A stretch of DNA of 64,000 bases, from contig CAWFDF010000003.1 of assembly GCA_963814585.1 (NCBI GenBank), forward strand, positions 352,001 to 416,000, in the 5' to 3' direction. The notes beneath the pieces are model-generated. The model was not told where the DNA came from. It worked only from the letters and a program-made list of their open reading frames with translations, and made no database searches. The DNA comes from an uncultured delta proteobacterium (GTDB taxonomy: Bacteria > Myxococcota > Myxococcia > Myxococcales > Anaeromyxobacteraceae). The position numbers were made by a program, and so were the translations under genes. Each line of letters opens with the position of its first letter. The first letter of the stretch is position 1. Below are positions 29,634 through 49,433 of the stretch, piece after piece.

Positions 29634-29764
29634 CGGGCGTCCCGCTCGCCCATCAAGCTACGCCGCCGCGCGGCGACCGGCCGTGGTCTCGCGGGGGTCG
29701 CGCGGAGGGGTGCGGCGGGGCGTCAGGCCGGCCCGCGCGGCCGCCATGGCGGCCGAGGCTGCGA

Positions 29765-31638
<1,874 letters not shown>

Positions 31639-31642
<4 letters not shown>

Positions 31643-34203
31643 GAGATCACCCTCGCGGCGGCGACGCTCGCCGCCTCTTCGGCCTGGCTGGCCAGCAGGG
31701 CCCGCACCTCGGCCGTGGTCCGGCACCTGAGCACGTCGGTGGCGAGCCCGGCGCACTCGTGCAGCCGCCACCGGGACAGCGTGGCCTTGACCCCCACGAT
31801 GGACGGCACGCTCACCGAGAGCTCGTCCACGCCCAGGCCCACCAGCAGGGGCACCGCCAGGGCATCGGAGGCGAGCCCGCCGCACACCCCCACCCACTTT
31901 CCGTACTCGTGCGCCCCCTCCACCGTCATGGCGATGAGCCGCAGCACCGCCGGGCTCAGGGCGTCGGCGTTCCTGGCCAGCTGCGGGTGGCCGCGGTCGG
32001 TGGCCAGGGTGTACTGGGTGAGGTCGTTGGTGCCGACCGAGAAGAAGTCCACCTCGCGGGCCAGCAGCTCCACGATCACCGCCGCCGACGGCACCTCGAT
32101 CATGACGCCGACCTTGACGGCCCGCTGGATGGTCTTCTGTTCCTCGGCCAGGATCTGCTTGGCGGCCCGCAGCTCCTCGAGCGAGGAGATCATGGGGAAC
32201 ATGAGGTGCAGGTTTCCCGCCGGCGCCGATCGCAGCACGGCCCGCAGCTGGGCCCGGAACAGGTCCGGGTAGGCCAGGCTGACGCGGATGCCGCGCAGCC
32301 CGAGGAAGGGGTTCTGCTCCTTCGGCATGGGCAGGTAGGGGAGCGGCTTGTCCCCGCCCACGTCCAGCGTTCGCAGGACGAACCGCCGCTCCGGGCCCAG
32401 CACCCCGGCGATGGCGGTGTAGGCCTCGGCCTGCTCGTCCTCGCTGGGGGCCGACTCGCGTCCGAAGAAGAGGAACTCCGAGCGCAGCAGGCCGACCCCC
32501 TCGGCGCCCTGGGCGATGGCCTCGCGGGCGTCCCCCAGGTTGCGGATGTTGGCGACCACCTCGACGCGGTGCCCGTCGCGGGTGCGGCCGGGCCCGATCG
32601 CGGCCGCGGCGTCGGCCTCCCGCTGGGCCGCCTGGGAGGCGATGCGCTGGCGCACCAGCTTGACCTGGACCTCGTCGGGGCTCACCCGCAGGGTGCCGAG
32701 GGTGCCGTCGACCACCACCCGCTCCCCATTCGGCAGCTGGAGGGCGGCCTCGTCGATCCCGCACACCGCCGGAATGCCGAGCGACCGGGCCAGGATGGCA
32801 ACGTGGCTGGTCGACCCGCCGGTGGTGGTGCAGAAGCCGACGATCCGCGTCCGGTCGAACTCGGCTGTCTCGGTGGGCGTCAGCTCGTCGGCGACGAGGA
32901 TCGAGCCCTCGGGGACCTCGACCTGGGCCTGGCTGATGCCGGCCAGCAGCGCCAGCAGCCGGCTGCCGATGTCACGCAGGTCGGCCGCCCGCTCGCGCAT
33001 GAGCGGGCTCTCGAGCTTCTCCAGCCGCCCGGCGTGCTGGGTGTAGGCCTCGCGCCACGCGAAGGCGGCGCTCTTTCCCTGGCCGAGCAGGGCGTCGGTG
33101 ATCTCGATGAGATCGGGGTCCTCGAGGAGCGCGATCTGCACCTCGAGGATCTGGGCCTTGGACCCATCGGCGATGTGGCGCCGCAGCGCATCGACCTGGC
33201 GCGCCGCCTCGCGGACCGCCGCGGCGAACCGCGCCCGCTCCTGCTCGAGCCCCTCGCCGTCGGGCGGGACCTCGATGGCGGCGTGTCGATGCTGGAAGAC
33301 CCGGCCCACGGCGAGGCCGGGCGAGGCCGGCACGCCGGTGAGATCCCCCGGGGAGGAGCTGACCACCCGCAGCTCCGGCGCGGCCCGTGGGAGGGCCGGA
33401 CGCTCCGCCAGGACCTCGCCGGCCGCCTCGCCGCAGCCCTCGGCGACCACCTGGACCAGGCGCTTCACCGCCGCCCGGGCGTCCCCGCCGGTGGCCTCGA
33501 ACCGGAGCTGCTCGCCCTTCCTGGTGGAGAGGCCCATGATGGCCACCACGGACTTGGCGTTGACGGTGTCCTGCCCGCGCCGGAGGCGGATGGTGGCGGT
33601 GTACTTCTTGGCCTCCCCGGCCAGCACCGCGGCCGGCCGGGCGTGCAGCCCGACCTCGTTGACCACCTCGACAGGCTCCGAGAGCACCGCCTCGCCCTCG
33701 CCCACCGCGACCGCGCCGCGGACGCCCTTCAGCTCGAGCCGGAGCAGCACCGTCTGGCCGGCCACGGCCAGGCCGTGGGCCGGCACCAGGCGCGCCACCC
33801 GCTCGCCGTCGGTGACGATCACCGCCGTGAGGAGGCTGCGGGCCCTGCGGGCCACGGCCTCCGGTTCGAAGCGCAGCACCACCTGGCCGCGCTCGACCCG
33901 GTCGCCGAGCGCGACCGCCGGGGTGAAGCCGGCGCCCGCCAGGGTGACCGTGTCGAGCCCGACGTGGACCAGCACCTCGACGCCCTCGTCGGTGGTGATG
34001 GCGAGCGCGTGGTGGGCGGCGTGGAACTGGCTGACGGCGCCGGATACGGGGGCCAGCACCTCGCAGGAGGTCGGATCGATCGCCACCCCGTCGCCGACCA
34101 TCTTCCTCGCGAACACCGGGTCCGGGACCGAGTCGAGCGGGACGATGACGCCGGAGAGCGGCGCCAGGATGTCCAAACCGGGGGTTGCTGGCATGGCTCC
34201 CAC
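31639..34203 (-). CDS. Multiphosphoryl transfer protein EIIA(Glc)-HPr-EI
   Basis: [19 protein letters not shown]; HPr [51 protein letters not shown]; start 34203 or 34194. Confidence 0.95.
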
Positions 34204-34244
34204 ACTTCCAGTCTAGCGGCGATGGGAATCGGCGGCGAGGTCGC

Positions 34245-35471
34245 TCACCGGAACTGGTAGAGGATCCGGAGGCGGACCGACTTGAGGGCGTTCTCGTACT
34301 CGCTGTTGGCGTCGGCGTCCTGGATGTGCGCCAGCGCCCAGCCGTAGACTGCCTTGACGCTCAGCCCCTCGATGGGCAGCCGGAAGAGGTAGGAGACGAA
34401 GGCCTGGTACTGCCAGTTCTCCTCCCCCTTGGCGTTCTTCTGGGTGGTGCGGTGGTAGCCGGCGCCGAAGGAGTTCTTCCAGAAGGCCAGGTCGACCCAG
34501 CCGCCCACGCTGGTCTTGTCGTAGGTCTGGGCCGCGTTCACGAGGCCGCTGATGTCGGTGACGTCCACCGTGGCGTGGGAGGCGTCCACGCCGGCGGTGA
34601 CGTAGGGGAAGATGTACTGCAGCCGGGCGCCATAGCCCTGGGCGGTGGTCTCGACCTTGTCGCCGGCCTTCACCGGCGTCTGGGTCAGGTACTCGTAGCC
34701 GCCCACGAGCTGCAGGCGGCCGAGGTGGAGGTCGACGGCCGGCCGGATGCCGAGGCTGTTCTGCTCCGTCTCGAACCCGTACACGCCTGCCAGCTCGAAG
34801 CTGAGCCAGTCGGTGGGGCGGAGGTGGAAGGCGGCCTGCCCGGGCCCGTTGGTCTGGCCGCGGGTGAAGTCGACCAGGTACAGCCGCGGTCCGCCGGAGG
34901 CGCCGGCCTCCTCGGCCGAGTAGAGCTCGATGCCCTGGCCGCGGTAGTAGATCTCCCAGGCGAGCAGGCGGCCGACCTGCAGGTCCCAGAGCGGGGTCCC
35001 GACCTGGAGGTAGACGTCCTGGACGTGGGACTCGCCGTACTTCCCGTCGGCGAAGTCGTTCACCAGCGCCAGCAGCTCCAGCTTGGCGAGGGCGGTGAGG
35101 TTGCCGAAGGTGCGCGAGTAGGTGGCGCCCAGCACGAAGCGGCCGGTCATGTACTCGGTGTTCTGGTTGGGCAGGCCGGGCTGGGTGTTGTCCCGGTTCA
35201 TGTAGCCGGTGTCCACCCAGAACTCCCCGTAGAGGCGGAGAGGGACGGCCGGCCTGGTCGGCAGGTACCAGCCCGCCATCGGGGACAGCTCCGCGGCGGC
35301 CTGGGCCACCGGGATGGCGCGTCCCTCGGTCGGCACGGCCTGGGCGGTCGGTTCGGCGGGCGGCACCGCGGGTGCGGTCGTCTCCTGGGCCATGACCGTG
35401 CCGGCCAGGCCCAGCCACAGGGCGGCGGTGAGCGGCATCCAAGGCGTGCCTGCGATCTTCTCGATCTTCAC
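34245..35471 (-). CDS. Outer-membrane beta-barrel, putative carbohydrate porin
   Basis: Signal peptide, Tyr/Trp/Phe-rich amphipathic strands, C-terminal LRILYQFR; sits between GH3 and PTS genes. Confidence 0.7.
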   Translation of the reverse strand: MKIEKIAGTPWMPLTAALWLGLAGTVMAQETTAPAVPPAEPTAQAVPTEGRAIPVAQAAAELSPMAGWYLPTRPAVPLRLYGEFWVDTGYMNRDNTQPGLPNQNTEYMTGRFVLGATYSRTFGNLTALAKLELLALVNDFADGKYGESHVQDVYLQVGTPLWDLQVGRLLAWEIYYRGQGIELYSAEEAGASGGPRLYLVDFTRGQTNGPGQAAFHLRPTDWLSFELAGVYGFETEQNSLGIRPAVDLHLGRLQLVGGYEYLTQTPVKAGDKVETTAQGYGARLQYIFPYVTAGVDASHATVDVTDISGLVNAAQTYDKTSVGGWVDLAFWKNSFGAGYHRTTQKNAKGEENWQYQAFVSYLFRLPIEGLSVKAVYGWALAHIQDADANSEYENALKSVRLRILYQFR

Positions 35472-35502
35472 GTGGTCCTCGATCCGGTCGAGCCGCGGCC
35501 GG

Positions 35503-37827
35503 TCACTGGATGGTGAACGAACCCGTCTGCAGGTTCGGGTCGGTGGTGCTCGACGACGGGCCGACGTAGAGCTGGTAGGCCATCTTCTCGACGGTCATCC
35601 TCTGGGCCGCGACGCTCCAGTAGGCGAGGTCCGCCCCCTTGACCTGGAACGTGACGGTCTGCTTGGTACCCGGGGCGAGGTCGGCGACACGGGCGAAGGC
35701 CTTGAGCTCCTTCTTGGGGCGCCCCCAGGTGTCGGCCACCGAGGTGTTGTCGAAGCCGACGTAGAGCTGGGCCACCTCGGAGCCAGCCACCGGCCCGGTG
35801 TTCTGCACGTCCACCTTGACGGTGAGCGTCCCGATCTCGGACAGGGGGGAGTTGACCACCTGGAGGTTGGAGTAGGCGAAGGTCGTGTAGGAGAGGCCGT
35901 AGCCGAACGGGTACCGCGGGGCCTTGCCCTGCCGCTCCAGCCAGCGGTAGCCGTGGTAGTAGCCGTAGCTCACGTCTCCGGTGGTGGTGTTGTCGAAGGG
36001 CGGCAGGTCGGACTCGGCCATCGGGAAGCTCTGGACCAGCTTGCCGCTCGGGTTCACGTCGCCAAAGACGATCTCACCGAGCGCGGTCCCCTCCTTCATG
36101 CCCGCGAACCAGGCCATCACCACCGCGTCGGCGCCGGCCAGCCAGGGATCGACGATGATGGCGCCGCCGCTCTTCAGCACCACGATCACCTTGAGCGCCG
36201 GGTTGGCGGTCTTGAGCGCCACCGCGTTGGCGATGTTGGTGAGGTCGCGCGCCGGGAGCGACATGCTGACCCGGTCCTTCCACTCCCCCTCCTCGCCGCT
36301 GGAGGATCTGGCCAGGTCCGCGGGGAAGTAGGCGGCCACCACCACCACCGCGTCCGAGTCCTGGATGGCGGCCTCGTTGCCGGCCACGTTCTCGAAGGTG
36401 AGCGCGCACTTGGCCACGCCGCCGCAGGAGGTCGTCGAGGTGTTGGTGGCGCCGAGGGCGGCGCTCAGCCCCTCCCACGGCGTGATCACCAGCTCGCCGT
36501 CCACCACCTTGGCGTCGGAGGAGCCCTTGTCCCCCATGTTCTCGGCGTTCGAGAACTTCCCGACCAGGGCGATCTTGGCCGTGGTGGTGCGGGACAGCGG
36601 CAGGACGTCGTCGCCGAGGGCGGCGGTCGGGCCGTTCTTGAGGAGGGTGATCCCCTCGCGAGCCGACTGCAGCGCCAGCGCCTGGGTGGCGTCCGACTTG
36701 GTCAGCCACGGCGTCCAGGCCACGGGGTGGGCGATGAGGCCGAAGTGCACCTTCGAGTAGAGGATGCGCAGCACGGCCTCGTCGACCAGCTTGACGTCCA
36801 CCTGGCCCTGGGCCAATGCCTGCACCAGCCGGCTCCCGTAGTAGTAGGTGCAGTCGAAGATGCTCGGGCAGACCCCCTCGCTGAAGGGCATCTCGATGTC
36901 GAGACCGGCCACCGGCGAGGTGAGCGTCTTCCCCTTGGCGAACCAGTCGGAGACCACCCAGCCCTGGTAGCCCCAGCCGGTCTTGAGGATGTCGCGGACC
37001 AGGTCGGTGTTCTCGCCGCTGTAGCTGCCGTTGACGCGGTTGTAGGAGGACATGACGCAGGAGACGCCCGCCTCGGTGGCCTTCCTGAAGTGCGGCAGGT
37101 AGACCTCGCGCAGGGTCCGCTCGTCCAGGACCGCGTTGACGTAGATGCGGGTGTCCTCGATGTTGTTGGCGGCGAAGTGCTTGGCGCAGGGCTGCACCCG
37201 GTAGGCGGACTGGATGACCTGGCCCGGATCGGCGGGGTCGGCCACGGCCGGGTCGTACTGGGCCCCGGTGATGAAGGACGACCCCATGGCCCCGAGCAGG
37301 AAGGAGTCCTCGCCATAGGACTCCTGGGCCCGGCCCCAGCGCGGGTGGGAGACCTGGTTGATGGTGGGGGCGAGCAGGATGTGGCGCCCGAGGTAGCGCA
37401 TCTCGTCGGCCATGCCCTTGCCGATCCTCCGCTCCAGCTCCAGGTCCCAGGAGGCGGCCCGGGCCGCGGCCACCGGGTAGACGGTGGTGCCGTAGGTGGA
37501 GTTGTACCAGCGCACGCCGCGGGGCCCGTCCATGAAGAGGAAGCCGGGGATGCCGAGCCGGGTATTCGTCCCCTGGTCGAACATGTTGTTGGGGTTGAAG
37601 GTCAGCCCACTCATCTGCTGGACCTTCTCCTCCACCGACATGGACCGCAGCAGGGAGAGGGCGGTCGTCACCTCGGCGTCGTTGCAGTCGAGCCCGACCT
37701 TGACCGCGGCCGGATCGCAGGAGGTCTCCTGGTTGGTGGGGCCCTTGGGGGACGGGCAGCCGGTGCCCGACAGGACGACCCAGGCGAGGAGGCTGGCCCT
37801 GGCCACGGCGTGGACGGTCTTCTTCAT
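35503..37827 (-). CDS. GH3 beta-glucosidase lipoprotein with C-terminal Fn3-like domain
   Basis: Lipobox LSGTGC; DGPRG, PRWGRAQESYGED, KHFAAN, MSSYN, nucleophile VSDW, YPFGYGLSYT, PKKELKAF. Confidence 0.95.
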   Translation of the reverse strand: MKKTVHAVARASLLAWVVLSGTGCPSPKGPTNQETSCDPAAVKVGLDCNDAEVTTALSLLRSMSVEEKVQQMSGLTFNPNNMFDQGTNTRLGIPGFLFMDGPRGVRWYNSTYGTTVYPVAAARAASWDLELERRIGKGMADEMRYLGRHILLAPTINQVSHPRWGRAQESYGEDSFLLGAMGSSFITGAQYDPAVADPADPGQVIQSAYRVQPCAKHFAANNIEDTRIYVNAVLDERTLREVYLPHFRKATEAGVSCVMSSYNRVNGSYSGENTDLVRDILKTGWGYQGWVVSDWFAKGKTLTSPVAGLDIEMPFSEGVCPSIFDCTYYYGSRLVQALAQGQVDVKLVDEAVLRILYSKVHFGLIAHPVAWTPWLTKSDATQALALQSAREGITLLKNGPTAALGDDVLPLSRTTTAKIALVGKFSNAENMGDKGSSDAKVVDGELVITPWEGLSAALGATNTSTTSCGGVAKCALTFENVAGNEAAIQDSDAVVVVAAYFPADLARSSSGEEGEWKDRVSMSLPARDLTNIANAVALKTANPALKVIVVLKSGGAIIVDPWLAGADAVVMAWFAGMKEGTALGEIVFGDVNPSGKLVQSFPMAESDLPPFDNTTTGDVSYGYYHGYRWLERQGKAPRYPFGYGLSYTTFAYSNLQVVNSPLSEIGTLTVKVDVQNTGPVAGSEVAQLYVGFDNTSVADTWGRPKKELKAFARVADLAPGTKQTVTFQVKGADLAYWSVAAQRMTVEKMAYQLYVGPSSSTTDPNLQTGSFTIQ

Positions 37828-37893
37828 GAGTCTCTCGATCGCCTGGGATGGATGGAGGGGGCCGGCGGCGGCGAGGCCGCCGGCCTGGCAAGA

Positions 37894-40386
37894 TCAGAAC
37901 ATGTTGGTCGGAATGCCGAATCCCTTGACGAAGGTCGCGTGCTGGCCGTCGCCGGGGAGGTCCGACACCTGGGACGCGGCCGCCGCGTCGGAGAGCGGCA
38001 GCCCGACCGGCAGCGTGCCCCGCCCGTTGACGATGCCGAAGGCCACGTCGAGGAAGATCTTGTCGGTGATGTTGGGCGGCGTGGTCCCGTTCCACTGCAC
38101 GTAGAGGCCGCTCACCCCCATGGCCAGGATCTCGCTCACCACCGATGGCCTTCCGGCGTCCACGCCGACGATGATCTGGGCCTGCGAGGGCGAGGTGGGG
38201 TGGGCCTGGTTCCAGGCGGTGATGGCGTCGCGCGCGGCGATGACGGGCTGCAGCGCCGAGGCGTTGGCGCTGCCGGCGTACTCCAGCGACTGCAGCGGGT
38301 AGGAGAAGCTCCCGCTGTCCGGGTCCACGGTGAACGGCGCCGCGAGGCGGATGAAGACGTAGTCGGAGAGGGCCATCCGCTCGGCGTCCGTGGTCACCGG
38401 CACCGTCTTCACCGAGGAGGTGCCGTTGGTCATGGTGCCGTAGCCGGTGGAGACCGAACCGACGTAGTTCGAATCGAAGTCGCCGGCGATGAAGTAGTCG
38501 CAGCCGGCGGCGATGTAGGGTGAGCCGGGAGGCGCGGGGAGCACCTTGAGCGTGCCGTTGCCGGCGTTCCCCGGGTCCCCGGTCTGCGTGCCGTCGCCGG
38601 AGCCATTGAGCCAGCCCATCGGCTTGGCGGCGTTGACGAGGAGCACCATGCCCCGGTTCCCGGCGTCGAGGCCACCGTTGAGGGCCGTGTCGCTGTTCAC
38701 CAGCGCCGGCGCCATGTTCGGGTCGACGTAGGGGTTCTCGAAGAGCCCGAGCCGGAAGGCCAGCGCCAGCGCCCGTCTTGCCGAGGCGTCGATCTGGGCG
38801 TCGGAGATGTCACCGGCGGTCCGGGCCGCCGCGACCGGCGTGACGTCGGCCAGGCCGCCGAACTGGTCGACGCCGGCGTCCACCGCCTTGGCGAGGCGCT
38901 GGGCCTGGGTCAGCCCCTCCACGCCCCACGGGGCGCCGAACCCGGAGGCCGTGGGCGGGATCACCTCGTTGTCGAGAACGCCCCAGGGGGCCAGCACCAG
39001 GCCGCCGAAGGCGTAGGAGCCGCGCAGGGCGTCGGTGAGGAGCTTGGCGTTGAACGAGGCGCCCACCTGCTCGATGGTGGACCCGTCGAGGACGCCGGCC
39101 AGGCCGGTCCAGGTGCCCCTCTCGGGGACGCCGTGGGCCGGCATGACGCCGGCCACGCCGGCGGTGATGGCCCTGGCGAACGGCGCCAGGTGGGCGTCGA
39201 CGGCGTTGCCCGGGTAGCCGACCAGCCGGCCCTTGGCCAGCTTGGCGTCCCAGCCGCCCTTGGCCGGGCCGGCCCCAGGGAAGGAGTTGACCACGCAGGC
39301 GAGGCTGGTCGGGCCCAGGGTGTCTCCCTGGGCCGCCTTCACGAAGGCCTCGACCCGGTTGGCCACAGCCACGGAGTCCTCACCGTAGGTGAACTGCGAG
39401 CCGAACCAGCGTGGCTCGGTGGCCAGGTTGGCCGAGGGGCCGAGCAACATGCGGACGCCGATGGCCCGGAACTCCTGCGAGACCACCTGGCCGAACAGCT
39501 GGATCAGGGCCAGGTCGTCGCTGGCAGCGAGCGAGAGCTCGCTCGGCCACTTCGAGAAGTCCCTGGCCTTGACCCGGCCGTTGCCCGAGGAGTGGGCCGG
39601 CTGGCTGGAGATGACGAAGGGGACGCCGAGGGTGGTGGCCTCGCAGGCCTCCTGGACGGCGTTGGCCCAGGTGGCGCGCGGCCTGGGCTGCGTGCTGGTG
39701 GCGGTGGAGAGGCCGAAGCGGACGCCACTGGTGATGAGGGAGAGTGTTGCAGGCAGGAGCACGTTGGTGTCGGCCAGCGAGGGGTGGAGCTGCAGCGCCA
39801 TCCTCTGGTCGACCGTCATACGGCCGGCCAGATCGGTGGCCCGTGCGTCGGCGGTTTGGGTCCAGTCCTCGTAGGGCTGGAGGGCGCTGTCGTTGTTCAG
39901 GTCCCTGAACTGCAGGTCCACCGGGCACTCCACCAGGGCATTCCCGGCCACGCTGGCGAAGGCGGTGGTGAAGGTCCTGACGGTCTTGCCCGACGAGGGC
40001 CTCACCGCCAGCACCGGCTGCGCGGCGACGAGCTCCGCCTTCCGGGTCACGTTGGCGGCCTTGTCGCACTCCGCGAGCACCACGGCCGAGAAGGTCGCGC
40101 CGATGACCTTGTCGGCGTCCATCGTGATGGTTGCGGGGCTCGTGCTCCCGGTCAGCGCGCCAGTCCAGGCGGAGAACTGGTAACCGCCAGCCGGCGTGGC
40201 CGTGACGGTCACCACGGTGCCTGCGGTGTAGGTCCCACCCGACGGGTTGAGTGTGATGGTCCCGTTGGACGGGGTCGTCACCGTGAGGACGTACTGCACC
40301 GCCGGGGTGCTGTCGCCGCCACCGCAGGCCGCCATGCCAAGCAGGAGGGCCGCCGCAACCGTCCTTCCGAGAGCTCTCGTCGTCAT
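37894..40386 (-). CDS. GH3-fold lipoprotein with N-terminal bacterial repeat domain; predicted catalytically inactive
   Basis: Lipobox LGMAAC; repeat YVLTV..GGTYTAGT..F..WTG; FRDLNND..PYEDW, LGLFENPY; nucleophile position reads LAPW. Confidence 0.85.
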   Translation of the reverse strand: MTTRALGRTVAAALLLGMAACGGGDSTPAVQYVLTVTTPSNGTITLNPSGGTYTAGTVVTVTATPAGGYQFSAWTGALTGSTSPATITMDADKVIGATFSAVVLAECDKAANVTRKAELVAAQPVLAVRPSSGKTVRTFTTAFASVAGNALVECPVDLQFRDLNNDSALQPYEDWTQTADARATDLAGRMTVDQRMALQLHPSLADTNVLLPATLSLITSGVRFGLSTATSTQPRPRATWANAVQEACEATTLGVPFVISSQPAHSSGNGRVKARDFSKWPSELSLAASDDLALIQLFGQVVSQEFRAIGVRMLLGPSANLATEPRWFGSQFTYGEDSVAVANRVEAFVKAAQGDTLGPTSLACVVNSFPGAGPAKGGWDAKLAKGRLVGYPGNAVDAHLAPFARAITAGVAGVMPAHGVPERGTWTGLAGVLDGSTIEQVGASFNAKLLTDALRGSYAFGGLVLAPWGVLDNEVIPPTASGFGAPWGVEGLTQAQRLAKAVDAGVDQFGGLADVTPVAAARTAGDISDAQIDASARRALALAFRLGLFENPYVDPNMAPALVNSDTALNGGLDAGNRGMVLLVNAAKPMGWLNGSGDGTQTGDPGNAGNGTLKVLPAPPGSPYIAAGCDYFIAGDFDSNYVGSVSTGYGTMTNGTSSVKTVPVTTDAERMALSDYVFIRLAAPFTVDPDSGSFSYPLQSLEYAGSANASALQPVIAARDAITAWNQAHPTSPSQAQIIVGVDAGRPSVVSEILAMGVSGLYVQWNGTTPPNITDKIFLDVAFGIVNGRGTLPVGLPLSDAAAASQVSDLPGDGQHATFVKGFGIPTNMF

Positions 40387-40593
40387 GGTCCTCTCCTCGC
40401 CTTTCCCCGGGATCCGCCCGGGATGTTCCCTGGAGCTGCACCCCGTCCCGAGTCCGCCACCCACCCGGCAGGAACACCAGCCCGGTGGGCACCGGACTCG
40501 CGGAGAGGGCGGCCAGGCCGGGGTCCGCGCTGGACCCCGGCGTTGCGCGCCTTCTCCATCCGCGGGAACGTCCCGCGGTTCGAGTCCCTCGGC

Positions 40594-43407
40594 CTAGTTG
40601 TTCGGGAGGTTTCCGCCCGCGCCGAGCGAGTAGGTCGGGGCCACCGAGTCGGCCGGGACGTCCTCGAACTGCGCCTCCACCGCCGCGTCCGAGCTGGGGA
40701 TCTCGATGGGGAGGCGGGCCGCCCCGTAGGTCCAGCCGGCGATCGGGTTCCTGTTGAAGACGAAGTCGAGGATGGCCCGGTCATAGGCGCCGAAGTCCGC
40801 GACGATCGAGTCCACGCCCACGTGGGCCGTGGGTGTCCCGGTGGTGACCACCGTGGCGTTCACGTTGGCCGGGTTCGACACCAGGGGGTAGCTCCCCGCC
40901 ACGCCCAGGGTCTCGTCGAGCGTGGTGAGCCCGTTGACGAACGGCTTCAGGATGGCCGCCCGGTCGAGGTGGGCCACCAGCACGATCTTGAGGCTCGGGT
41001 TGACCGGCGCGATGACGTTGCCATCGGCCAGGGCGTAACCGTCACGGGCGCGGAACAGGTCGATGACCCGGTTGCGGTCCCTGATGGCGGGGTTGATGGT
41101 GCTGTCGTTCGAGCCGCTCGGGAGCGGACCGTCGAAGGAGAGCGGCACCCCGGCGTCGAGGCCGCTGTACGCTCCCTTGCGCGCCGTGATGCGGACCACC
41201 GCGAGGTCGGCCCCCACCAGCGTGTTGGTGGAGACGATGGGGATGGTGAAGCCGTTGGTCCCGGCCACGCCGCTCCCGGCCACCGCGTAGTTGTAGTCCG
41301 AGAGCATGGCGCTGTACTGGTCCGCGCCCGCCAGCCCGTCGACGACGCCGTCGAAGTAGACCTCGACCGTGCCGTCCTTGTCCGAGTCCGAGCTGAACTC
41401 GTTCAGGTCAGGCGCGCCGGTGGTGCCGCCGGCGACGTCGATGTACCGGGACTGGGAGATGGGCAGGCGGCCGGCGTTGGAGGTGGCGGCGTTCCTGAGC
41501 AGCACCAGGGCCTTCTTCTGGGCGTCGAAGCCGGCCTGCAGGGTCGCCGTGGAGCGGACGGTGGCGGTGGCGACGGCCGGGTCCGCGTAGGGGTTCTCGA
41601 AGAGACCGAGCCTGAAGGTCATCTCGAGGATCTTGGTCGCGGCGCCGTCGATGTCGGCGGTCGTGAGCAGGCCCTGGTCGAAGGCAGCCTGGACGAGGGT
41701 GTGGGAGTCATTGCCGAGCTGGTGCGAGCCGGATCGCACGAACGAGGCCGCCTTCTCGGGTCCGGTGAACATCTCCAGGCCCCAGGCCGAGTTGCCGGCC
41801 GAGCCCCAGTCACCGGTGATCATCCCGTCGAAGCCCAGGGTCTGCTTGAGGTAGGTCTGGATGAGCCGGTCCGAGTGGGAGGCCCCGACCTGCTCGGGAT
41901 CCCACTCCGGGACCTTGAAGATCGAGTAGCAGGGCATGACCGCGGCCGAGCCGGCCGCGATGGCCGCCTTGAACGGGATCTGGTGGTACTCGAACATCCC
42001 GCCCGGGAAGACGTTGAACTTCCCCGGAGCGGAGTGGCTGTCCTTGCCGTCCTCGTCGGCGCCGGCGCCGGGGTAGTGCTTCATGGTGGCGGCGATGCCG
42101 TTGCGAAGCCCGCCGCCACCGCGGCCGCCCTGGAAGCCCTCGATCTCCGCCTTGACGTGCTTGGCGGCGTGGTGGGCGTTCTCGCCGAAGAGGTTCTGGA
42201 CCCGGGCCCAGCGGGGCTCGGTGGCGATGTCGGCCATGGGGCCGAGCTGCCAGCGGAAGCCCATGGCCATGAACTCGGCGCGGATGGTGTTGCCGAAGGC
42301 GAAGGTGGCGTCGGTGTTGTTGATGGCGCCCATGCCGAAGGGCTGCGGCCAGTGGGACACCTGGATGGTGGGGTTGCCGGACCCGTTGTTGCCGCACATC
42401 GTCTGGGCGCCGCTGGTCCCGTTGGTGCACGTGCTGATCGAGTGGACCGGGTCGGCGGTGACCACGAACGGGATGGCGAGGGGCAGCCCCTCGGCGAGCG
42501 CCTGGACGTTGTTGAGGTAGGTGGTGTACTGGGCCGGGGTGATGGTCCCGAGGCGGATGAGCGCCTGGCGGCGATGGTCGACGGAGATCGTGTTGACTGC
42601 CGACTGGATGTTGCCGCTGGCCGTGCCGCTGCCGATGCTGCTGCTCTCGGACATGAGGCCGACCTTCTGGGGAATGCCCATCTGCTTCACGAGGTTCTGG
42701 GCACGGCAGATCTCGAGGAGCCGCCAGTCCTCGTACGGGTCAAGGCTGCCGTTCTTGTTGAGGTCACGGAACTTGAGGCCGTCCACGGTGAGCTCGGTGA
42801 CCGCGGTGTAGGGCACGTCGGTGACCCCGGTGCCCGGGTTGTAGGTGTACGGCACGCCGCCGTTGAGGGGCTGGCCGCCATACGCCGCGGCGTAGCCGAG
42901 CACCGGCTGCTGCGTGTAGACGATGGCGTTGCAGTCCGCGACCGTCGGAGGCTGCGGCGGGACCATGGCGCTCAGGATGCAGCCGCCGCCGTAGCAGGAC
43001 CAGCCGGTGGGGCAGAAGCCGGCCTGGTTGGTGGAGCTGCAGATGTCGGCATCCGGGACGCAGCCGCCCATGAAGCAGGACTCGCCGGCGACGGCGCAGG
43101 CGCCGTTCGGCTCGGAGGTGCTGCACGCCACGGGGGTCGGCACGGCCGACTCGAGAATGCAGCCGCCCCCGAAGCAGGCGAAGCCTGCGGGGCAGGTGCC
43201 GCTCGAGTTGGTCGCGCTGCAGAGGCTGGCCGAGGCCACGCAGGTGCCCTGGAAGCAGGACTGGCCCGAGGCGCAGGTGCCGCTGGTGTAAGAGGGGCTG
43301 CAGGCCGGGATCTCGTTGGTGACCGTGGTGGTGTCGGTCCCGGAACAGGCGGTTCCCAGCAGAACCAGGGCTACGGCGGCTGGAAGGATCCTTCGGAAAG
43401 CCTTCAC
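40594..43407 (-). CDS. GH3 glycosidase lipoprotein with four N-terminal Cys-rich repeats
   Basis: Lipobox LGTAC; FRDLNKNGSLDPYEDW, ADPVH, EPRWAR, KHYPG, MPCYS, nucleophile TGDW. Confidence 0.92.
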   Translation of the reverse strand: MKAFRRILPAAVALVLLGTACSGTDTTTVTNEIPACSPSYTSGTCASGQSCFQGTCVASASLCSATNSSGTCPAGFACFGGGCILESAVPTPVACSTSEPNGACAVAGESCFMGGCVPDADICSSTNQAGFCPTGWSCYGGGCILSAMVPPQPPTVADCNAIVYTQQPVLGYAAAYGGQPLNGGVPYTYNPGTGVTDVPYTAVTELTVDGLKFRDLNKNGSLDPYEDWRLLEICRAQNLVKQMGIPQKVGLMSESSSIGSGTASGNIQSAVNTISVDHRRQALIRLGTITPAQYTTYLNNVQALAEGLPLAIPFVVTADPVHSISTCTNGTSGAQTMCGNNGSGNPTIQVSHWPQPFGMGAINNTDATFAFGNTIRAEFMAMGFRWQLGPMADIATEPRWARVQNLFGENAHHAAKHVKAEIEGFQGGRGGGGLRNGIAATMKHYPGAGADEDGKDSHSAPGKFNVFPGGMFEYHQIPFKAAIAAGSAAVMPCYSIFKVPEWDPEQVGASHSDRLIQTYLKQTLGFDGMITGDWGSAGNSAWGLEMFTGPEKAASFVRSGSHQLGNDSHTLVQAAFDQGLLTTADIDGAATKILEMTFRLGLFENPYADPAVATATVRSTATLQAGFDAQKKALVLLRNAATSNAGRLPISQSRYIDVAGGTTGAPDLNEFSSDSDKDGTVEVYFDGVVDGLAGADQYSAMLSDYNYAVAGSGVAGTNGFTIPIVSTNTLVGADLAVVRITARKGAYSGLDAGVPLSFDGPLPSGSNDSTINPAIRDRNRVIDLFRARDGYALADGNVIAPVNPSLKIVLVAHLDRAAILKPFVNGLTTLDETLGVAGSYPLVSNPANVNATVVTTGTPTAHVGVDSIVADFGAYDRAILDFVFNRNPIAGWTYGAARLPIEIPSSDAAVEAQFEDVPADSVAPTYSLGAGGNLPNN
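42976..43305 (-). repeat. Four tandem 4-Cys protein repeats (CS-x5-G-x-C-x2/3-G-x2-C-F/Y-x-G-x-C)
   Basis: CSPSYTSGTCASGQSCFQGTC, CSATNSSGTCPAGFACFGGGC, CSTSEPNGACAVAGESCFMGGC, CSSTNQAGFCPTGWSCYGGGC. Confidence 0.9.
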
Positions 43408-43520
43408 GACGACCTCCTCGATGACTGTGGGTACGAGACGCTCCTGCGGGTTGAGAGACGGGCGAGGGCACGGCGCTGCTCAGAGTCGCAGCACACGATG
43501 CCCGGGTGCTGCGCGGTGCG

Positions 43521-43556
43521 CTTCCGTGTTCTTGCCTCCGACTTGTGCGTTCTTGC
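43521..43556 (-). promoter_or_regulatory. Putative AraC-family operator: GCAAGAAC-N4-AAG direct repeat with 21-bp period
   Basis: Plus strand cttccgtgttcttgc (43521-43535) and cttgtgcgttcttgc (43542-43556), upstream of the GH3 operon. Confidence 0.6.
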
Positions 43557-43775
43557 GGCTGGGCCGAAGGGCATGCGCGATGGCGCGCCGCGCCTTCCAG
43601 CGCGCCGCGCCCACCGGTCACACCCATGGCGGCAACGGGCCGCAGAGCGCGGTCGACACCTGGAGTGCCACGTGCTTCCCGGGCCCTGGCCTGGCCTTCC
43701 TCGTCTTTTCGGGCTGGTGGGGTGCGGACTCGTGCCGCAGTGCGCGACGGAAGCCCCACAGTCCAATTGTCACAC

Positions 43776-43805
43776 CCCGTACAGGCTCCTCCCGTACAGG
43801 CTCCT
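43776..43805 (+). repeat. Perfect 15-bp tandem duplication (cccgtacaggctcct x2)
   Basis: 43776-43790 equals 43791-43805. Confidence 0.9.
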
Positions 43806-43844
43806 CCTTGTCGGTCGTCGAAGCCATGGGCTACGTTCCGCGCG

Positions 43845-44750
43845 ATGGGAATGACGACGCAGCTGGCAGGGCTCCTGCCGAGGGTCTCCGGCGACGGATC
43901 GGTGCGTGGCCTGGCCGACCTGCCAGGAGCCCGGGCCGCCTTCGCGCGGGACTGGGGCGGCGTCCGGGCGATCCAGCTCCACCTCGACCCGCAGGACGTT
44001 CCCGAGGGCTACCTGCTCAGCAACCTGGTCTCCATGAACCTCGGCCGGGAGTCGCTCTGTGACTCCAGCATCGAGGGGCGCGGCTGGCAGACCTACCGCA
44101 CCCCGCACCACGGGGTGACGGTCATCCCGGCCGGCCTGCCCTTCGCCACCCGGGCCAGGGAGGGCAGTGACTACCTTCTCGTCGAGCTGCTGCCCGAGTT
44201 CGTGTCGCGGGTCCTCGGCGCCGGGGGCGGGGAGAGCGTGCTGCCGACCGTGCTCGGCGTCCGGGACACCTTCGCCGAGCACGTGCTGCTGGCGCTGGCC
44301 GAGGAGGGGCGTCGCGAGACCCAGTCGACGGTCCTGGCCGAGAGCCTCGGGACCGCGCTGGTCACCCACCTCGCGGAGCGCCGGGTGGTCGCCGCCCCGG
44401 CCCCGCCCCCGCCGGCCATGCCGTCGCTCCCCAGCCACACGCTCCGCAGCGTCCTGGAGTTCGTGTCAAGGAACCTCGATACGCCGCTCTCGCTGGAGCG
44501 GCTCGCGGCGGTGGCCGGCATGGACCTGTACCGCTTCGCGCGCGCCTTCAAGCAGAGCACCGGGTCGTCGCCCCACCACTACGTGCTGGAGACGCGCATC
44601 CTGCGGGCCAAGGAGCTGCTGCGCGATCGGGCCATCTCGATCACCGAGATCGCCTACCGGACCGGCTTCGCCAGCCCCAGCCACTTCTCGGTGACCTTCC
44701 GGCGGATCACCAAGGTGGCGCCGCGCGCCTTCCGCGACGGCGCGGAGTAG
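43845..44750 (+). CDS. AraC-family transcriptional regulator
   Basis: LSLERLAAVAGMDLYRFARAFKQSTG, SITEIAYRTGFASPSHFS; divergent from the GH3 operon. Confidence 0.93.
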   Translation: MGMTTQLAGLLPRVSGDGSVRGLADLPGARAAFARDWGGVRAIQLHLDPQDVPEGYLLSNLVSMNLGRESLCDSSIEGRGWQTYRTPHHGVTVIPAGLPFATRAREGSDYLLVELLPEFVSRVLGAGGGESVLPTVLGVRDTFAEHVLLALAEEGRRETQSTVLAESLGTALVTHLAERRVVAAPAPPPPAMPSLPSHTLRSVLEFVSRNLDTPLSLERLAAVAGMDLYRFARAFKQSTGSSPHHYVLETRILRAKELLRDRAISITEIAYRTGFASPSHFSVTFRRITKVAPRAFRDGAE

Positions 44751-44767
44751 GTCCAGGCCGCTTCGCC

Positions 44768-45469
44768 TCAGGGCCCGACCAGCCGGAGCACCAGCTCCAG
44801 GCCGTGCTCGACCCCGTGGGTGCGGGGCAGGAGCAGCGTGCGGATGCCGAGGCGGGCCGCGCCGGCGTCATCGGTGGCGTTGTCGCCGACCATGAGCGCG
44901 CGGGCGGGCGGGACGCCCAGCGCCTCCAGGGCCCGCTGGAAGATCGGGCCGTGGGGCTTCACCGCGCCGACCTCGAAGGAGAGGATGACCGCGTCGAAGA
45001 GGTCTCCCATCCCGCTGCGCTCCAGCACGCCCCGCACGTCGACACCCACGTTGGAGATGAGGGCCAGCTTGAGGCCGCGTGCCTTGAGCGCCCGCAGGGT
45101 GGGCAGCGCGTCGTCGTAGGGAATCCAGGTCTCCAGCATGACCTCGTAGAGCGCCTGGGCCAGCTGGTCGTCCACCTCGGGGACCCGTTCCATCAGCGCG
45201 TCGTAGACCTCCCGGTGGCGCCTGGGCGACAGGTCGCGCTCGTTGTGCGGATCGACCTCGAGAACGTGCTCCCAGATGCGGTCCACCCAGGCCGCCAGCC
45301 GCCCGGCGCGCTCCGGCCCCAGCGAGTCCTGCACCGTCCCGGCGCGCCCGGCGTGCCGCCAGGCCAGCTCCAGCCAGGCGCGAGGGTCTCCCTGATCCAC
45401 CAGCGTGGAGTGGAAGTCGAAGAGCACGGCCTCGATGGCGTCCGGCGTGTCGAGCGAGCGCAGGGTCAT
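44768..45469 (-). CDS. HAD-IA family hydrolase
   Basis: LFDFHSTL, LISN, KP..PIF, MVGDNATDD. Confidence 0.88.
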   Translation of the reverse strand: MTLRSLDTPDAIEAVLFDFHSTLVDQGDPRAWLELAWRHAGRAGTVQDSLGPERAGRLAAWVDRIWEHVLEVDPHNERDLSPRRHREVYDALMERVPEVDDQLAQALYEVMLETWIPYDDALPTLRALKARGLKLALISNVGVDVRGVLERSGMGDLFDAVILSFEVGAVKPHGPIFQRALEALGVPPARALMVGDNATDDAGAARLGIRTLLLPRTHGVEHGLELVLRLVGP

Positions 45470-45485
45470 CCGTCACCTCGCCCGC

Positions 45486-46076
45486 CTACGGCGACATCCC
45501 CGGCCCCCAGGCCATCTCCCACTGCCTCCCGGGCCTCGCGCTCGGTGCGGAGACGATGGTCCGCTCCAGCGCGCCCTGCACGCAGCGCGCCGCGTTCTCG
45601 TCGAGGGCGACCGGGTCCGCGCCGCTGGCCTCCTCGGTCCCGGCGCCGGCCGGCTCCACCCGCACCTCCAGCACCCGCACCCGCTGGTCCAGGGTCTCGA
45701 GGGTGAGGAAGAGGGTGGCGTCACGCAGCCGGCAGGCCTCGATGCGGCCGTCGAGATCCTTCAGCCCGGCGAAGACCTCCCGGCGCAGGGGCTCGAGCGC
45801 CTCGAGCCGCTCGCGAGGGTCCAGCGGCAGATCGGGCGGCCTCGGCGCCTCCACCGCTGGCCGGGGCGGCGGCGGGAGAGGCCGGGCCTCGCGGACCGGC
45901 TCCGGCGCGGGCGGAGCCGCGACGGGTGGCGGCTCGGAGGGCGCTGCGCGAGGAGCTTCGACGGGTGCCGGCCGGGTCGGCCGGGTCGGCTCCGGCCACA
46001 GCACGTAGAGCGAGCCGGCCGTGAAGAGGATCGCGACTCCACCCAGTCCAAGCTGGCGCCAATGCCCGGTGGTCAC
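45486..46076 (-). CDS. Hypothetical membrane-anchored protein with Pro-rich linker and two-Cys C-terminal domain
   Basis: GTG after ggaggg; N-terminal TM, Pro-rich stalk, IEAC...ARCV. Confidence 0.6.
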   Translation of the reverse strand: MTTGHWRQLGLGGVAILFTAGSLYVLWPEPTRPTRPAPVEAPRAAPSEPPPVAAPPAPEPVREARPLPPPPRPAVEAPRPPDLPLDPRERLEALEPLRREVFAGLKDLDGRIEACRLRDATLFLTLETLDQRVRVLEVRVEPAGAGTEEASGADPVALDENAARCVQGALERTIVSAPSARPGRQWEMAWGPGMSP

Positions 46077-46223
46077 GTCCCCTCCCCTTCCCACATCGAG
46101 AATCGGCCCAGCGCTCGCCGGCCCCCAGCACCGACGGTGGCGAAGGTACGCTCGCCTCGCCCCGTTGCCAACCGCTCCGGACACCGCTCCGGCGGTCGCT
46201 GAACGGACGGCTGACCAAGAACT

Positions 46224-47640: not shown

Positions 47641-49251
47641 TCACATCTCCGGCGCCGGCGCGCTGGACTTCGGCTCCGGCAGCTCGGCCAGCGTCGCCTC
47701 GGTGAGGAGCAGCACGCTGGCGACCGAGACGGCGTTCTCCAGGGCCAGCCGCACCACCTTGGTGGCGTCGATGATCCCCTCCTGGACCAGGTCGACCCAG
47801 GTGCCGTGGGCGGCGTCGAAGCCCTGGTTGCCCGCGCCCTCCCGCATCCGCTGCACCACCACCGCGGCGTCGGCGCCGGAGTTCATGGCGATCTGCCGGG
47901 TGGGCACGGTGAGCGCGTGCGCCAGGATGACGAGCCCGGTCCGCTCGTCGCCGCTGCAGGTGGCCGCCTCCCGCTCCAGGGCCTCGACGGCTCGCAGCAG
48001 CACCAGGCCGGCGCCCGGGACGATCCCCTCCGCCACCGCCGCCTTGGTGGCGCTGATGGCGTCCTCGAAGGCCTCCTTGCGGCTCTTCAGCTCGGCCTCG
48101 GTGGGGGCGCCGACGTGGATCACCGCCACCCCACCGGTGAGCTTCCCCAGCCGCTCCTGCAGCTTCTCCTTGTCGTAGTCGCTCTTGGCCTCGCGGATCT
48201 CGCGCCGCAGCTGCTCGGTACGATCGACGATGGCCGTGTGGTCGCCCTTGCCGCCGATGATGGTCGTGGTCTCGCGGGCCACCACCACGCGGCGGGCGCT
48301 CCCCAGGTCGGCCAGACCGAGGGCCTCGAGCTTGGCGCCCAGCTGCTCCGAGACCACCCGCCCGCCGGTGAGCACGGCCAGGTCCTCCAGCAGGTCGCGG
48401 CGCCGGTCCCCGAAGCCCGGCGCCTTGACCGCCGCGCAGGCCAGCGTGGCCCGCAGCTTGTTGACCACCAGCGTGGCCAGCACGTCCCCCTCGACCTCCT
48501 CGGCGACGATGAGGAGCGGCCGGCCGGTCTTGAGGACCTCCTCGAGGATGGGGACGACGTCCTTCATGGCCGCGATGCGGCGGTCGGTGAGCAGGACGAA
48601 GGCGTCCTCCAGGACGCACTCCATCCGCTCGGGGTTGGTGACGAAGTAGGGGGAGAGGTAGCCGCGGTCGAACTGCATCCCCTCCACCACCTCCAGGGTG
48701 GTCTCGGTGCCCTTGGCCTCCTCGACCGAGATGACCCCCTCGCCACCCACCCGCTCCACGGCATCGGCGACCAGGTCGCCCATGGTGGCGTCGTTGTGGG
48801 CGGAGACGGTGGCGACCTGGGCCTTCTCCTTGCGGCTCCCCACCGGCCGCGACTGGGCCTTGAGGCTCGCCACCGCCACGCGGGCGCCGCGATCGAGGCC
48901 GCGCTTCAGGTCGATGGCGCTGGCGCCGGCCGCCACGTTCTTCAGCCCCTCGGCGTAGATGGCGTGAGCCAGCAGGGTGGAGGTGGTGGTGCCGTCGCCC
49001 ACCGTCTGCCCGGTCCGCTCGGCGGCCTGGCGCATCATCCGGGCGCCCAGGTTCTCGGTGGGGTCGTCGAGCTCCAGCTCCTTGGCGATGGTCACCCCGT
49101 CGTTGCAGACGATGGGCTCGCCCCAGCGCTTGTCGATGAGGACGCACTTGGACTTCGGCCCCAGGGTCACGCGCACGGCGTTGGCGAGCTTGCTGGCGCC
49201 CCGCAGCACGGCGTCGCGCGCCTCGTCCGCGAAGAGCAGTTGGCGCTTCAT
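47641..49251 (-). CDS. groEL: Chaperonin GroEL paralog (no adjacent groES, no GGM tail)
   Basis: VTLGPK, NDGVTIAKE, GDGTTT, EGMQFDRGYLSPYF, KAPGFGDRR. Confidence 0.96.
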   Translation of the reverse strand: MKRQLLFADEARDAVLRGASKLANAVRVTLGPKSKCVLIDKRWGEPIVCNDGVTIAKELELDDPTENLGARMMRQAAERTGQTVGDGTTTSTLLAHAIYAEGLKNVAAGASAIDLKRGLDRGARVAVASLKAQSRPVGSRKEKAQVATVSAHNDATMGDLVADAVERVGGEGVISVEEAKGTETTLEVVEGMQFDRGYLSPYFVTNPERMECVLEDAFVLLTDRRIAAMKDVVPILEEVLKTGRPLLIVAEEVEGDVLATLVVNKLRATLACAAVKAPGFGDRRRDLLEDLAVLTGGRVVSEQLGAKLEALGLADLGSARRVVVARETTTIIGGKGDHTAIVDRTEQLRREIREAKSDYDKEKLQERLGKLTGGVAVIHVGAPTEAELKSRKEAFEDAISATKAAVAEGIVPGAGLVLLRAVEALEREAATCSGDERTGLVILAHALTVPTRQIAMNSGADAAVVVQRMREGAGNQGFDAAHGTWVDLVQEGIIDATKVVRLALENAVSVASVLLLTEATLAELPEPKSSAPAPEM

Positions 49252-49433
49252 GGACAGAGCTTGAGCCAACCCGCGGCGGCGAGCGTGGTGAAGGCGGGTT
49301 CGCGCCTTGGTGTCGGACCTCTCCGCGCGCGTCAGCGCGCCGCGCCGCCATCGGGTGGCGGTTCGGACTCCCCGGCGGCGCGCACCTCGTGGTACGGGTG
49401 GCGTCGGGGGCGGCTGGAGGCCGCGCGAGCTGC

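Follow-up and report, generated by a model that had tools for sequence, protein, structure and literature searches.

The pseudoenzyme gene and its fold

The window analysed here is a 64,000-nucleotide stretch of DNA from an uncultured delta proteobacterium of the Anaeromyxobacteraceae (GenBank assembly GCA_963814585.1, contig CAWFDF010000003.1, positions 352,001 to 416,000). Its minus strand carries, in this order, genes for a Cys-repeat glycoside hydrolase family 3 (GH3) lipoprotein (GH3-A), a GH3 pseudoenzyme lipoprotein, a second GH3 lipoprotein (GH3-B), an outer-membrane barrel, and the phosphotransferase system (PTS) proteins EIIA-HPr-EI and EIICB, with an AraC gene divergent from the row. 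The pseudoenzyme represents a real and conserved family, which is encoded in a previously undescribed glucoside-uptake operon (porin, three GH3-fold lipoproteins and glucose PTS) of myxobacteria and their relatives. Residue counts for the family refer to 108 rows, namely the query and 107 members that were found, together with 4 InlB-repeat matches and 9 intact relatives, among the best 120 of the 1124 matches of a homologue search. The features of the gene, all on the minus strand, are as follows.

37894..40386, minus strand: GH3 pseudoenzyme lipoprotein (P0001) of the SN243/9UL7 clade, 830 amino acids
40324..40326, minus strand: lipobox Cys21, predicted to be lipidated, following a signal peptide at 40386-40327
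40084..40293, minus strand: InlB B-repeat spacer, residues 32-101 (PF18998, 55 bits)
39868..39903, minus strand: EF-hand-like loop DLNNDSALQPYE, residues 162-173, putatively calcium-binding by its motif
39601..39603, minus strand: Gln262, in place of an Asp that, from GH3 structures, presumably binds O4/O6 (family: E63, A11, D8 of 105)
39400..39402, minus strand: Gly329, in place of the SN243 Arg272 equivalent (family: G38, N22, L10 of 106)
39283..39288, minus strand: Asn367-Ser368, in place of SN243 Lys318-His319 (family: K in 6/108, H in 54/108)
39241..39249, minus strand: Asp380-Ala-Lys382, with the dyad Asp kept in 104/108 and its His replaced (R98, K8, C2 of 108)
38986..38988, minus strand: Pro467 at the nucleophile position (P102, A5, D1 of 108)
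38515..38625, minus strand: conserved domain-2 segment K588-Y624 (KPxGWLNGxGDGTQTGDKGNAGNG, then VLPAPPGEPY)

An earlier interpretation made from the letters alone (the sequence-only reading) had held that this protein is intact outside its active site, and the 830-residue reading frame without internal stops, the lipobox, the EF-hand-like loop and domain 2 were indeed all found in place. Cys occupies the Cys21 column in 98% of the family rows that cover it, and the lipobox pattern was matched in 83 of the 108 rows, partial proteins being counted in. The spacer that follows is variable among members, some of which have Cys-rich or Gly/Asp linkers instead of the InlB B-repeat (PF04706/PF23416 in P0070). 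The PxPxGxPY part of the domain-2 segment is inherited from intact relatives.

The GH3 N-terminal domain PF00933 was matched at residues 238-541 with 79.1 bits, against a cut-off of 27, and PF00933 and PF18998 were the only Pfam matches. PF01915 was unmatched in this Pfam scan, a result that bears, without giving a verdict, on an alternative Glu acid/base in domain 2. The best solved relative by sequence is 9UL7 (E 3.5e-78), followed by SN243 (E 1.5e-56). An AlphaFold2 model with a mean predicted local distance difference test score (pLDDT) of 91.1 superimposed on 9UL7 with Z 52.1 and a root-mean-square deviation (rmsd) of 2.2 over 589 aligned residues, spanning 134-828, and on SN243 with Z 48.8 and an rmsd of 2.4 over 605 aligned residues. 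The DLNxNGxLDPYEDW loop of the SN243/9UL7 clade is present at the N-terminal side; the EF-hand-like loop is thus a clade trait, because it is common to SN243 and 9UL7. By fold and descent, the pseudoenzyme is a GH3 protein of the SN243 clade, and it has the two-part GH3 architecture, with a (beta/alpha)8 domain followed by an alpha/beta sandwich domain. Metatranscriptome data (3 runs) gave 9 short contig pieces, one of them on the pseudoenzyme gene (153 nt, 16 differences, depth 2), which is too little for a statement on expression, and a promoter scan of 29000-45000 was uninformative, with 0 sigma-70 sites and 6 terminator-like sites against 3.2 expected.

Loss of catalytic and sugar-binding residues

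In the SN243 study (10.1101/2022.04.25.489410), Asp415 is the nucleophile and the Asp331-His333 dyad acts as acid/base; the D415A mutant was inactive, H333A lowered kcat 80-fold, and the sugar hydroxyls are contacted by Lys318, His319, Arg272 and Arg136. Alignment to GH3 structures placed Pro467 of the pseudoenzyme at SN243 Asp415, after strand E463-466 of the model, and its codon, CCC, was located at 38988-38986, in agreement with the proposed replacement of the nucleophile by proline. The same reading had listed five motif changes relative to GH3-A (40594-43407), all of which are present and aligned unambiguously: ADPVH to SQPAH, PRWAR to PRWFG, KHYPG to NSFPG, MPCY to MPAH, and GDW to APW. 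As a set, these changes hold for this protein but not for the family. The change of Tyr to His418 is strain-level, as Tyr is found in 93 of the 108 members, and within the KH pair it is the Lys that has been lost from the family, whereas the loss of its His is no family trait. A sixth change, absent from the earlier list, concerns the acid/base His (GKDSH in GH3-A), which is replaced by Lys382 at 39243-39241 (GWDAK here). Both catalytic residues are therefore gone, the Asp415 equivalent being Pro467 and the dyad His being Lys382.

The sugar-binding residues were found to be altered as well. The -1 subsite of this protein has Q262, G329, N367, S368 and H418 in place of Asp, Arg, Lys-His and Tyr, and the SN243 Arg136 equivalent (Arg285 in GH3-A) is Thr228, in a region where the local alignment is gappy. 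The clade motif KH(F/I)PG(H/L/G)GX6D(S/T/P)H is not matched; the pseudoenzyme reads NSFPGAGPAKGGWDAK. On this sequence evidence, the protein very probably does not hydrolyse glycosides. Its two GH3 neighbours, which had been called catalytically intact, both carry the motifs expected of active enzymes and appear intact at that level.

Conservation across the family

The family members share 47-85% identity with the query. Pro predominates at the nucleophile position, one of the five Ala rows being a frameshifted protein, and a second alignment (MAFFT) gave a Pro count of 101-103; at the acid/base position His was found in none of the 108 rows. The nucleophile is thus lost family-wide, with Asp in a single row, and strain-specific decay, which had been considered as an outcome, was not found. 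By comparison, Asp, His, Lys, Arg and Tyr were kept in all 121 sequences formed by GH3-A and its best 120 matches. Among 135 other representatives of the clade, obtained by searching 1.84 billion proteins with a profile, Asp was present in 132 and His in 125 of the 134 rows covering the site. Within the family, no member keeps more than five of the eight catalytic and binding residues and 99 of the 108 keep three or fewer.

The pattern of constraint has also shifted. Entropy reaches 1.8-3.0 bits at the ancestral binding positions 228, 262, 329, 367 and 368, while R237, R271, E283, R382, L383, K385 and P467 hardly vary (0.08-0.51 bits). Residues near-fixed in the family and rare in intact relatives are Arg237, Arg271, Phe332, Arg382, Leu383, Lys385 and Ala466-Pro467. 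By alignment, Arg271 lies within the loop equivalent to SN243 His190-Ala202, described as mobile in the SN243 report (10.1101/2022.04.25.489410), and residues 382-385 lie within the old His loop. Since few pocket positions vary as much as the -1 binding residues, glucose binding there is argued against; and since the old binding positions vary and the new rim residues are fixed, a rebuilt docking surface is favoured over a kept sugar site. His201 and the PAPPG motif, which had seemed family-specific when compared with GH3-A alone, were rejected as such, being common to other intact relatives.

A repurposed active site formed by His201, Asp206, Arg271, Asp380, Arg382 and Tyr418, or a product-sensing site that tunes the neighbouring GH3 enzymes, would also account for new conservation, and these six positions are 86-99% conserved; P0365 and P0435, two relatives that have the nucleophile without the dyad His, would suggest that the site was rebuilt stepwise. 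However, an acid at or beside the nucleophile position is lacking in 107 of the 108 members, position 262 is Gln here, and His201 is also common among intact relatives. Neither Arg for His nor Pro for Asp is known as a catalytic substitution in GH3, and a new catalytic or sensory function appears improbable.

The members are labelled in the databases as coming from Anaeromyxobacteraceae, Archangium, Myxococcota, Deltaproteobacteria and one Spirochaetes genome, and are named beta-glucosidase or GH3. With more than 100 members so labelled, the counts of carbohydrate-active enzymes (CAZymes) of these genomes are inflated. When genome contigs were scanned with the whole protein, most matches were to the InlB repeat and only 2 of 74 loci held family members; a metagenome scan gave 3 family loci of 80.

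Origin and selection

A domain-1 tree of 54 chosen rows (15 from the family, 8 from GH3-A and 31 others) resolved the pseudoenzyme family as a single clade with support 100/99. Its sisters are P0365 and P0435, in which the nucleophile is present and the dyad His absent, and outside these stand the intact P0364 and P0367 (99/95); GH3-A stands further off and is not the sister group. The earliest split within the family sets apart a branch with P0079 (Asp) and P0087 (Ala), and the Pro group follows (99/87). Because P0365 and P0435 keep Asp without His, and P0079 and P0087 are basal, the sequences indicate that His was lost first and the nucleophile later, an order that is likely rather than certain, as an earlier tree built without close outgroups had nested P0079. 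A reversal to Asp in P0079 was considered and dropped when closer outgroups placed that protein in the earliest branch. These surviving intermediates, with His lost and then Asp, make a clean case for the transition from enzyme to pseudoenzyme.

Selection was estimated from ratios of nonsynonymous to synonymous substitution rates (dN/dS, Nei-Gojobori) against this genome; pairs of fewer than 250 codons and the frameshifted genome G165 were excluded. The pseudoenzyme gave 0.36-0.63 (12 pairs), GH3-A 0.38-0.73 (9 pairs), GH3-B 0.25-0.47 (12 pairs) and the porin 0.38-0.95 (12 pairs), values that are rough because a GC content of 95-98% at third codon positions makes dS too low. The expected dN/dS below 1 was thus obtained for the pseudoenzyme, and it is similar to that of the intact neighbours. 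The mean column entropy of domain 1 was 1.26 bits in the family versus 1.29 in GH3-A. With its fold kept, its catalytic residues lost clade-wide and purifying selection indicated, the protein qualifies by sequence criteria as a pseudoenzyme.

Neutral decay of a redundant glycosidase that is merely carried along in the operon is extremely improbable: more than 100 full-length members, at 47-76% identity, have the same two substitutions fixed clade-wide, dN/dS is below 1, and conservation equals that of GH3-A. Signs that could be read as decay are the patchy distribution of the family (15 of 401 genomes), a truncated extra copy in genome G195, and the frameshifts in the G165 operon from this gene downstream, but the last damage is not specific, since intact-type genes downstream are broken too. 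The G165 locus (L118:503-11154) has frameshifts from the pseudoenzyme through GH3-B, porin and PTS genes, with both GH3-A copies and the AraC gene intact, which may reflect either decay or long-read errors.

A separate GH3 subfamily was observed that keeps KHFPG and TDW and has Ser or Thr for the dyad His (GKDTS, GVDGS, GVDGT). It occurs at loci L168, L169, L170, L183, L188, L191, L194 and L197-L201, as gene pairs in L168 and L194, and may use a Glu acid/base instead.

The operon and its probable regulator

The neighbouring genes are the following.

40594..43407, minus strand: GH3-A, Cys-repeat lipoprotein of SN243 type with intact motifs (Asp533, Asp456-His458, Lys443-His444, Arg402, Arg285)
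35503..37827, minus strand: GH3-B, BglB-like lipoprotein with an Fn3 domain and intact motifs (SDW, KHF, PRWGR, EGEWKDR)
34245..35471, minus strand: 16-stranded porin, 408 amino acids, with a long conserved loop 3 (residues 169-210)
31639..34203, minus strand: PTS EIIA(Glc)-HPr-EI fusion
29765..31642, minus strand: glucose-specific PTS EIICB (PtsG) with a second, Cys-less EIIB-like tail
43851..44750, plus strand: divergent AraC-family regulator, which probably controls the operon

The model of the barrel has 16 strands and no plug; it most resembles PorB, VhChiP and Omp32, at Z 25-26, versus Z 12-14 for TonB receptors. Judged from this model, the barrel is a general or substrate porin and not a TonB-dependent SusC. 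EIICB passes the glucose model TIGR02002 with 649 bits (cut-off 592) and scores 494 against the NagE model, below its cut-off of 553. N-Acetylglucosamine was therefore rejected as the imported sugar, as nagA and nagB, too, were not found in this 92%-complete genome. Neither a SusD nor a solute-binding protein is encoded in the operon.

Several further observations concern the locus itself. The EIICB tail (29765-30100, minus strand) is an EIIB-like domain without the phospho-accepting Cys (AVALSRLRV versus DACITRLRV), the second pseudo-domain in the operon. The Cys-less motif is found in 10 of 12 operon EIICB proteins, the remaining two being one cut by a contig end and one pattern mismatch. 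A perfect 15-nt tandem repeat just 5' of the AraC gene (window 43776-43805) is a possible operator, and three hairpins at 40449-40584, in the 207-bp gap between the GH3-A and pseudoenzyme genes, are possible RNA-stability or attenuation elements. A HAD hydrolase and a small protein of unknown type accompany the locus in relatives, with a HAD-ATPase fusion after EIICB here (window 44768-46184, 27933-29633), and a phosphofructokinase gene adjoins it in two relatives (L106:1100-2296, L121:5730-6776); these neighbours are consistent with glucose-phosphate handling. Window 49389-50837 (plus strand) encodes a secreted or lipoprotein-like SGNH/GDSL hydrolase with a carboxypeptidase-regulatory-like domain, adjoined by a gene (47641-49251) that, from its sequence, we take to be chaperonin-like.

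In four relatives outside the family of the window, a gene that fuses a PtsG-like EIICB to a histidine kinase (HisKA and HATPase) is found upstream of the operon next to a response regulator (L110:15968-18247, L113:1602-3953, L114:1512-3758, L120:7315-9669), at the place held by AraC in the window. Two of these fusions and one sigma-54 regulator were confirmed by Pfam and NCBIfam. The fusion looks like a transporter-derived glucose sensor, and no report of such a protein was found in the literature searched.

Co-occurrence and gene order in other genomes

In a survey of 401 genomes of the phylum (E 1e-60, two candidates scored per genome), 23 were matched, 15 of them by family members and 8 by weaker domain-1 matches, of which the 7 that were checked proved intact. 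GH3-A-type genes were found in the same 15 of 401 genomes. The porin was found in 14 of the 15, the contig ending in the last, and in 0 of the other 386, and GH3-B orthologues in 14 of the 15 and, as distant 46-47% matches, in 2 other genomes; in the fragmented 15th genome the start of GH3-B is still visible beside the pseudoenzyme gene. Among all 92 genomes of the window's taxonomic family, pseudoenzyme and porin occur in the same 8. In all 15 genomes GH3-B is the next gene downstream of the pseudoenzyme gene, and in 3 of them the two overlap by 4 bp; the porin gene follows GH3-B in 14 of 14 where visible, and GH3-A lies directly upstream of the pseudoenzyme in 13 of 14 where visible. Protein distances correlate with those of the pseudoenzyme at r 0.81 for GH3-B, 0.57 for GH3-A and 0.50 for the porin, against 0.92 for the EI-EIIC control, over 9 related loci whose 36 pairs are non-independent and confounded by adjacency.

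The expectation that the pseudoenzyme always accompanies the Cys-repeat GH3 and the barrel was borne out in part. It travels with both GH3 enzymes, the barrel and the PTS, but G330 has no adjacent GH3-A, only an unlinked, divergent subtype, and G195 and G198 each hold partnerless extra copies. The tie to the Cys-repeat GH3-A is looser than that to the downstream GH3-B. The extra copies are two more in tandem in each of the two genomes at another locus, with one of the four truncated and no intact GH3, porin or PTS gene within about 9 kb on either side. At L116:7316-10699 and L117:8901-13921, two tandem, more divergent copies were observed, one L116 copy comprising the C-terminal 267 amino acids; from their sequences, the flanking genes are presumably grpE/dnaK-like and a chemotaxis cluster.

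These distributions also bear on whether the pseudoenzyme and GH3-A form an obligate heterodimer that arose from an ancestral homodimer, with the pseudoenzyme as its inactive half. Such a pairing is very improbable, because GH3-A is not the sister of the family, whose nearest intact relatives are P0364 and P0367 (99/95), 4 genomes carry duplicates of GH3-A that no second operon copy matches, the residual distance correlation with GH3-A is negative (-0.45), and G330 does without an adjacent partner of this type. It would nevertheless agree with the occurrence of GH3-A-type genes in the same genomes, mostly directly upstream, and with the ligand-bound SN243 dimer seen in crystals (10.1101/2022.04.25.489410).

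Proposed function

A retained non-catalytic role, as had been proposed, is supported by the family-wide double loss, the single origin, dN/dS below 1 and the conserved gene company. Its preferred form, to which a probability of roughly 0.45 is given from the sequence data, is that of a structural accessory or scaffold subunit in a module that harvests glucosides at the outer membrane. The conserved gene row encodes three lipoproteins with the GH3 fold, a 16-stranded porin and every component of a glucose PTS. Going by what is known of their families, GH3-A and GH3-B would be exo-glycosidases that work at the outer membrane on beta-glucosides or gluco-oligosaccharides and free glucose; the sugar would pass through the porin, and PtsG would import and phosphorylate the glucose. 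In the pseudoenzyme the nucleophile and the acid/base His are gone and the -1 binding residues are no longer constrained, but new residues have become fixed at the old pocket rim (Arg271, Phe332, Arg/Lys382, Leu383, Lys385, Pro467), as has a long Gly/Asp-rich domain-2 segment. This rebuilt face may dock on a partner, most likely GH3-B, to which gene order, stop-start overlap and distance correlation point weakly, and the docked protein would keep the hydrolases next to one another or next to the porin, allowing the glucose that they release to be captured.

Several points weigh against this scaffold function. The conserved Tyr418, His201, Asp206 and Asp380 lie near the pocket, where a ligand site is possible, and the placement of the new residues at the pocket rim rests on alignment to SN243 and on strand positions. 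The N-terminal spacer differs widely between members, both in its length and in its type, a variability that a tight, fixed complex would not have to tolerate. G330 argues against a fixed partnership, as does the locus of extra copies in G195 and G198, and the distance correlations share the confounding given above. The genomes are related and the operon is inherited as a whole; co-occurrence therefore shows a shared pathway and not contact. A complex prediction for the porin (76-408) and the pseudoenzyme (165-830) scored 0.00 twice, and as controls were not folded, it is evidence neither way.

Some of the same observations would fit a lectin-like pseudoglycosidase, in which the pocket, emptied and widened, takes up an oligosaccharide or a charged glycan for delivery to the hydrolases or the porin, making it a SusD or surface glycan-binding protein by function and not by fold. 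With small residues where Lys, Arg and Asp had been, the pocket would be more open. Conservation extends to Tyr418, Trp327, Phe332 and three new basic residues, the operon codes for neither a SusD nor a solute-binding protein, and the stand-alone extra copies suit a partner-free protein. Pseudoglycosidases of the YKL-39 type retain glycan binding, according to a review (PMC7828330). On the other side, the equivalents of SN243 Lys318, His319, Arg272 and Arg136 are both lost and variable, the opposite of a lectin that drops only its catalytic residue, and the barrel is a diffusion porin. PtsG requires no binding protein. A lectin-like function is possible, though rather unlikely.

If the scaffold function is extended to the whole operon, a dead GH3 lipoprotein would assemble two active GH3 enzymes on a diffusion porin and channel glucose to the PTS, as the organising subunit of a utilisome without SusC/SusD. 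This fuller picture is doubtful; if true, such a system would exist in Myxococcota and in at least one spirochaete-labelled genome. Every component is either a porin or a soluble lipoprotein domain, which makes the system directly accessible to assays of activity, binding and complex assembly.

Comparison with known systems

No report of the GH3 pseudoenzyme family or of the porin/GH3/glucose-PTS operon was found in a literature search at title and abstract level, with subscription journals mostly outside its coverage. Pseudoglycosidases have been described mostly from eukaryotes, and GH3 ranks among the largest families of glycosidases. Both of the closest solved relatives are themselves enzymes. 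SN243 beta-glucuronidase (PDB 7QE1/7QE2) shares with the pseudoenzyme the fold, the EF-hand-like loop, the dyad Asp and the design of a signal-anchored cell-surface enzyme; it differs in being active and in having a C-terminal membrane anchor, whereas the pseudoenzyme has lost the equivalents of Asp415, His333, Lys318, Arg272 and Arg136. The GH3 beta-glucosidase 9UL7, the best match in both sequence and structure, has KHFPG, DAH and the TDW nucleophile, unlike the pseudoenzyme, and no lipoprotein spacer in the solved chain.

At the level of the operon, two systems invite comparison. SusC/SusD systems have a 22-stranded TonB-dependent transporter as their outer-membrane component. The SusC/SusD utilisomes of Bacteroidota likewise bring together, at a single locus, an outer-membrane barrel, lipoproteins with glycosidase activity and one lipoprotein without catalytic function, but here a plugless 16-stranded porin serves as the barrel, a glucose PTS takes the inner step, and the non-catalytic lipoprotein is of GH3 fold. 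The suggestion that the pseudoenzyme acts in place of SusD is therefore not supported in that form: the protein aligns to GH3 over 134-828 and has no SusD fold, and without a transporter of SusC type as its barrel partner it cannot strictly be called a SusD equivalent. The Vibrio chitoporin pathway, which consists of a porin, a periplasmic glycosidase and a PTS route, is similar in that the porin described here matches VhChiP (Z 25.5, tied with PorB and Omp32) and is likewise combined with hydrolases and a PTS. It differs in that the PTS is of glucose type here, nagA and nagB were not found, and a dead GH3 protein belongs to the set.

Glycosidase folds kept under selection without catalysis are known from YKL-39 (GH18), klotho (GH1) and CyRPA (GH33); in the review that treats them, the known pseudoglycosidases are eukaryotic GH18, GH1 and GH33 proteins (PMC7828330), in contrast to the bacterial GH3 pseudoenzyme of a sugar-uptake operon. 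From what that source describes, YKL-39 keeps the ancestral sugar-binding residues, whereas the pseudoenzyme does not, the five ancestral positions being the variable ones. In klotho, according to the same source, the dead pocket binds a protein partner, as is proposed here for the pseudoenzyme.

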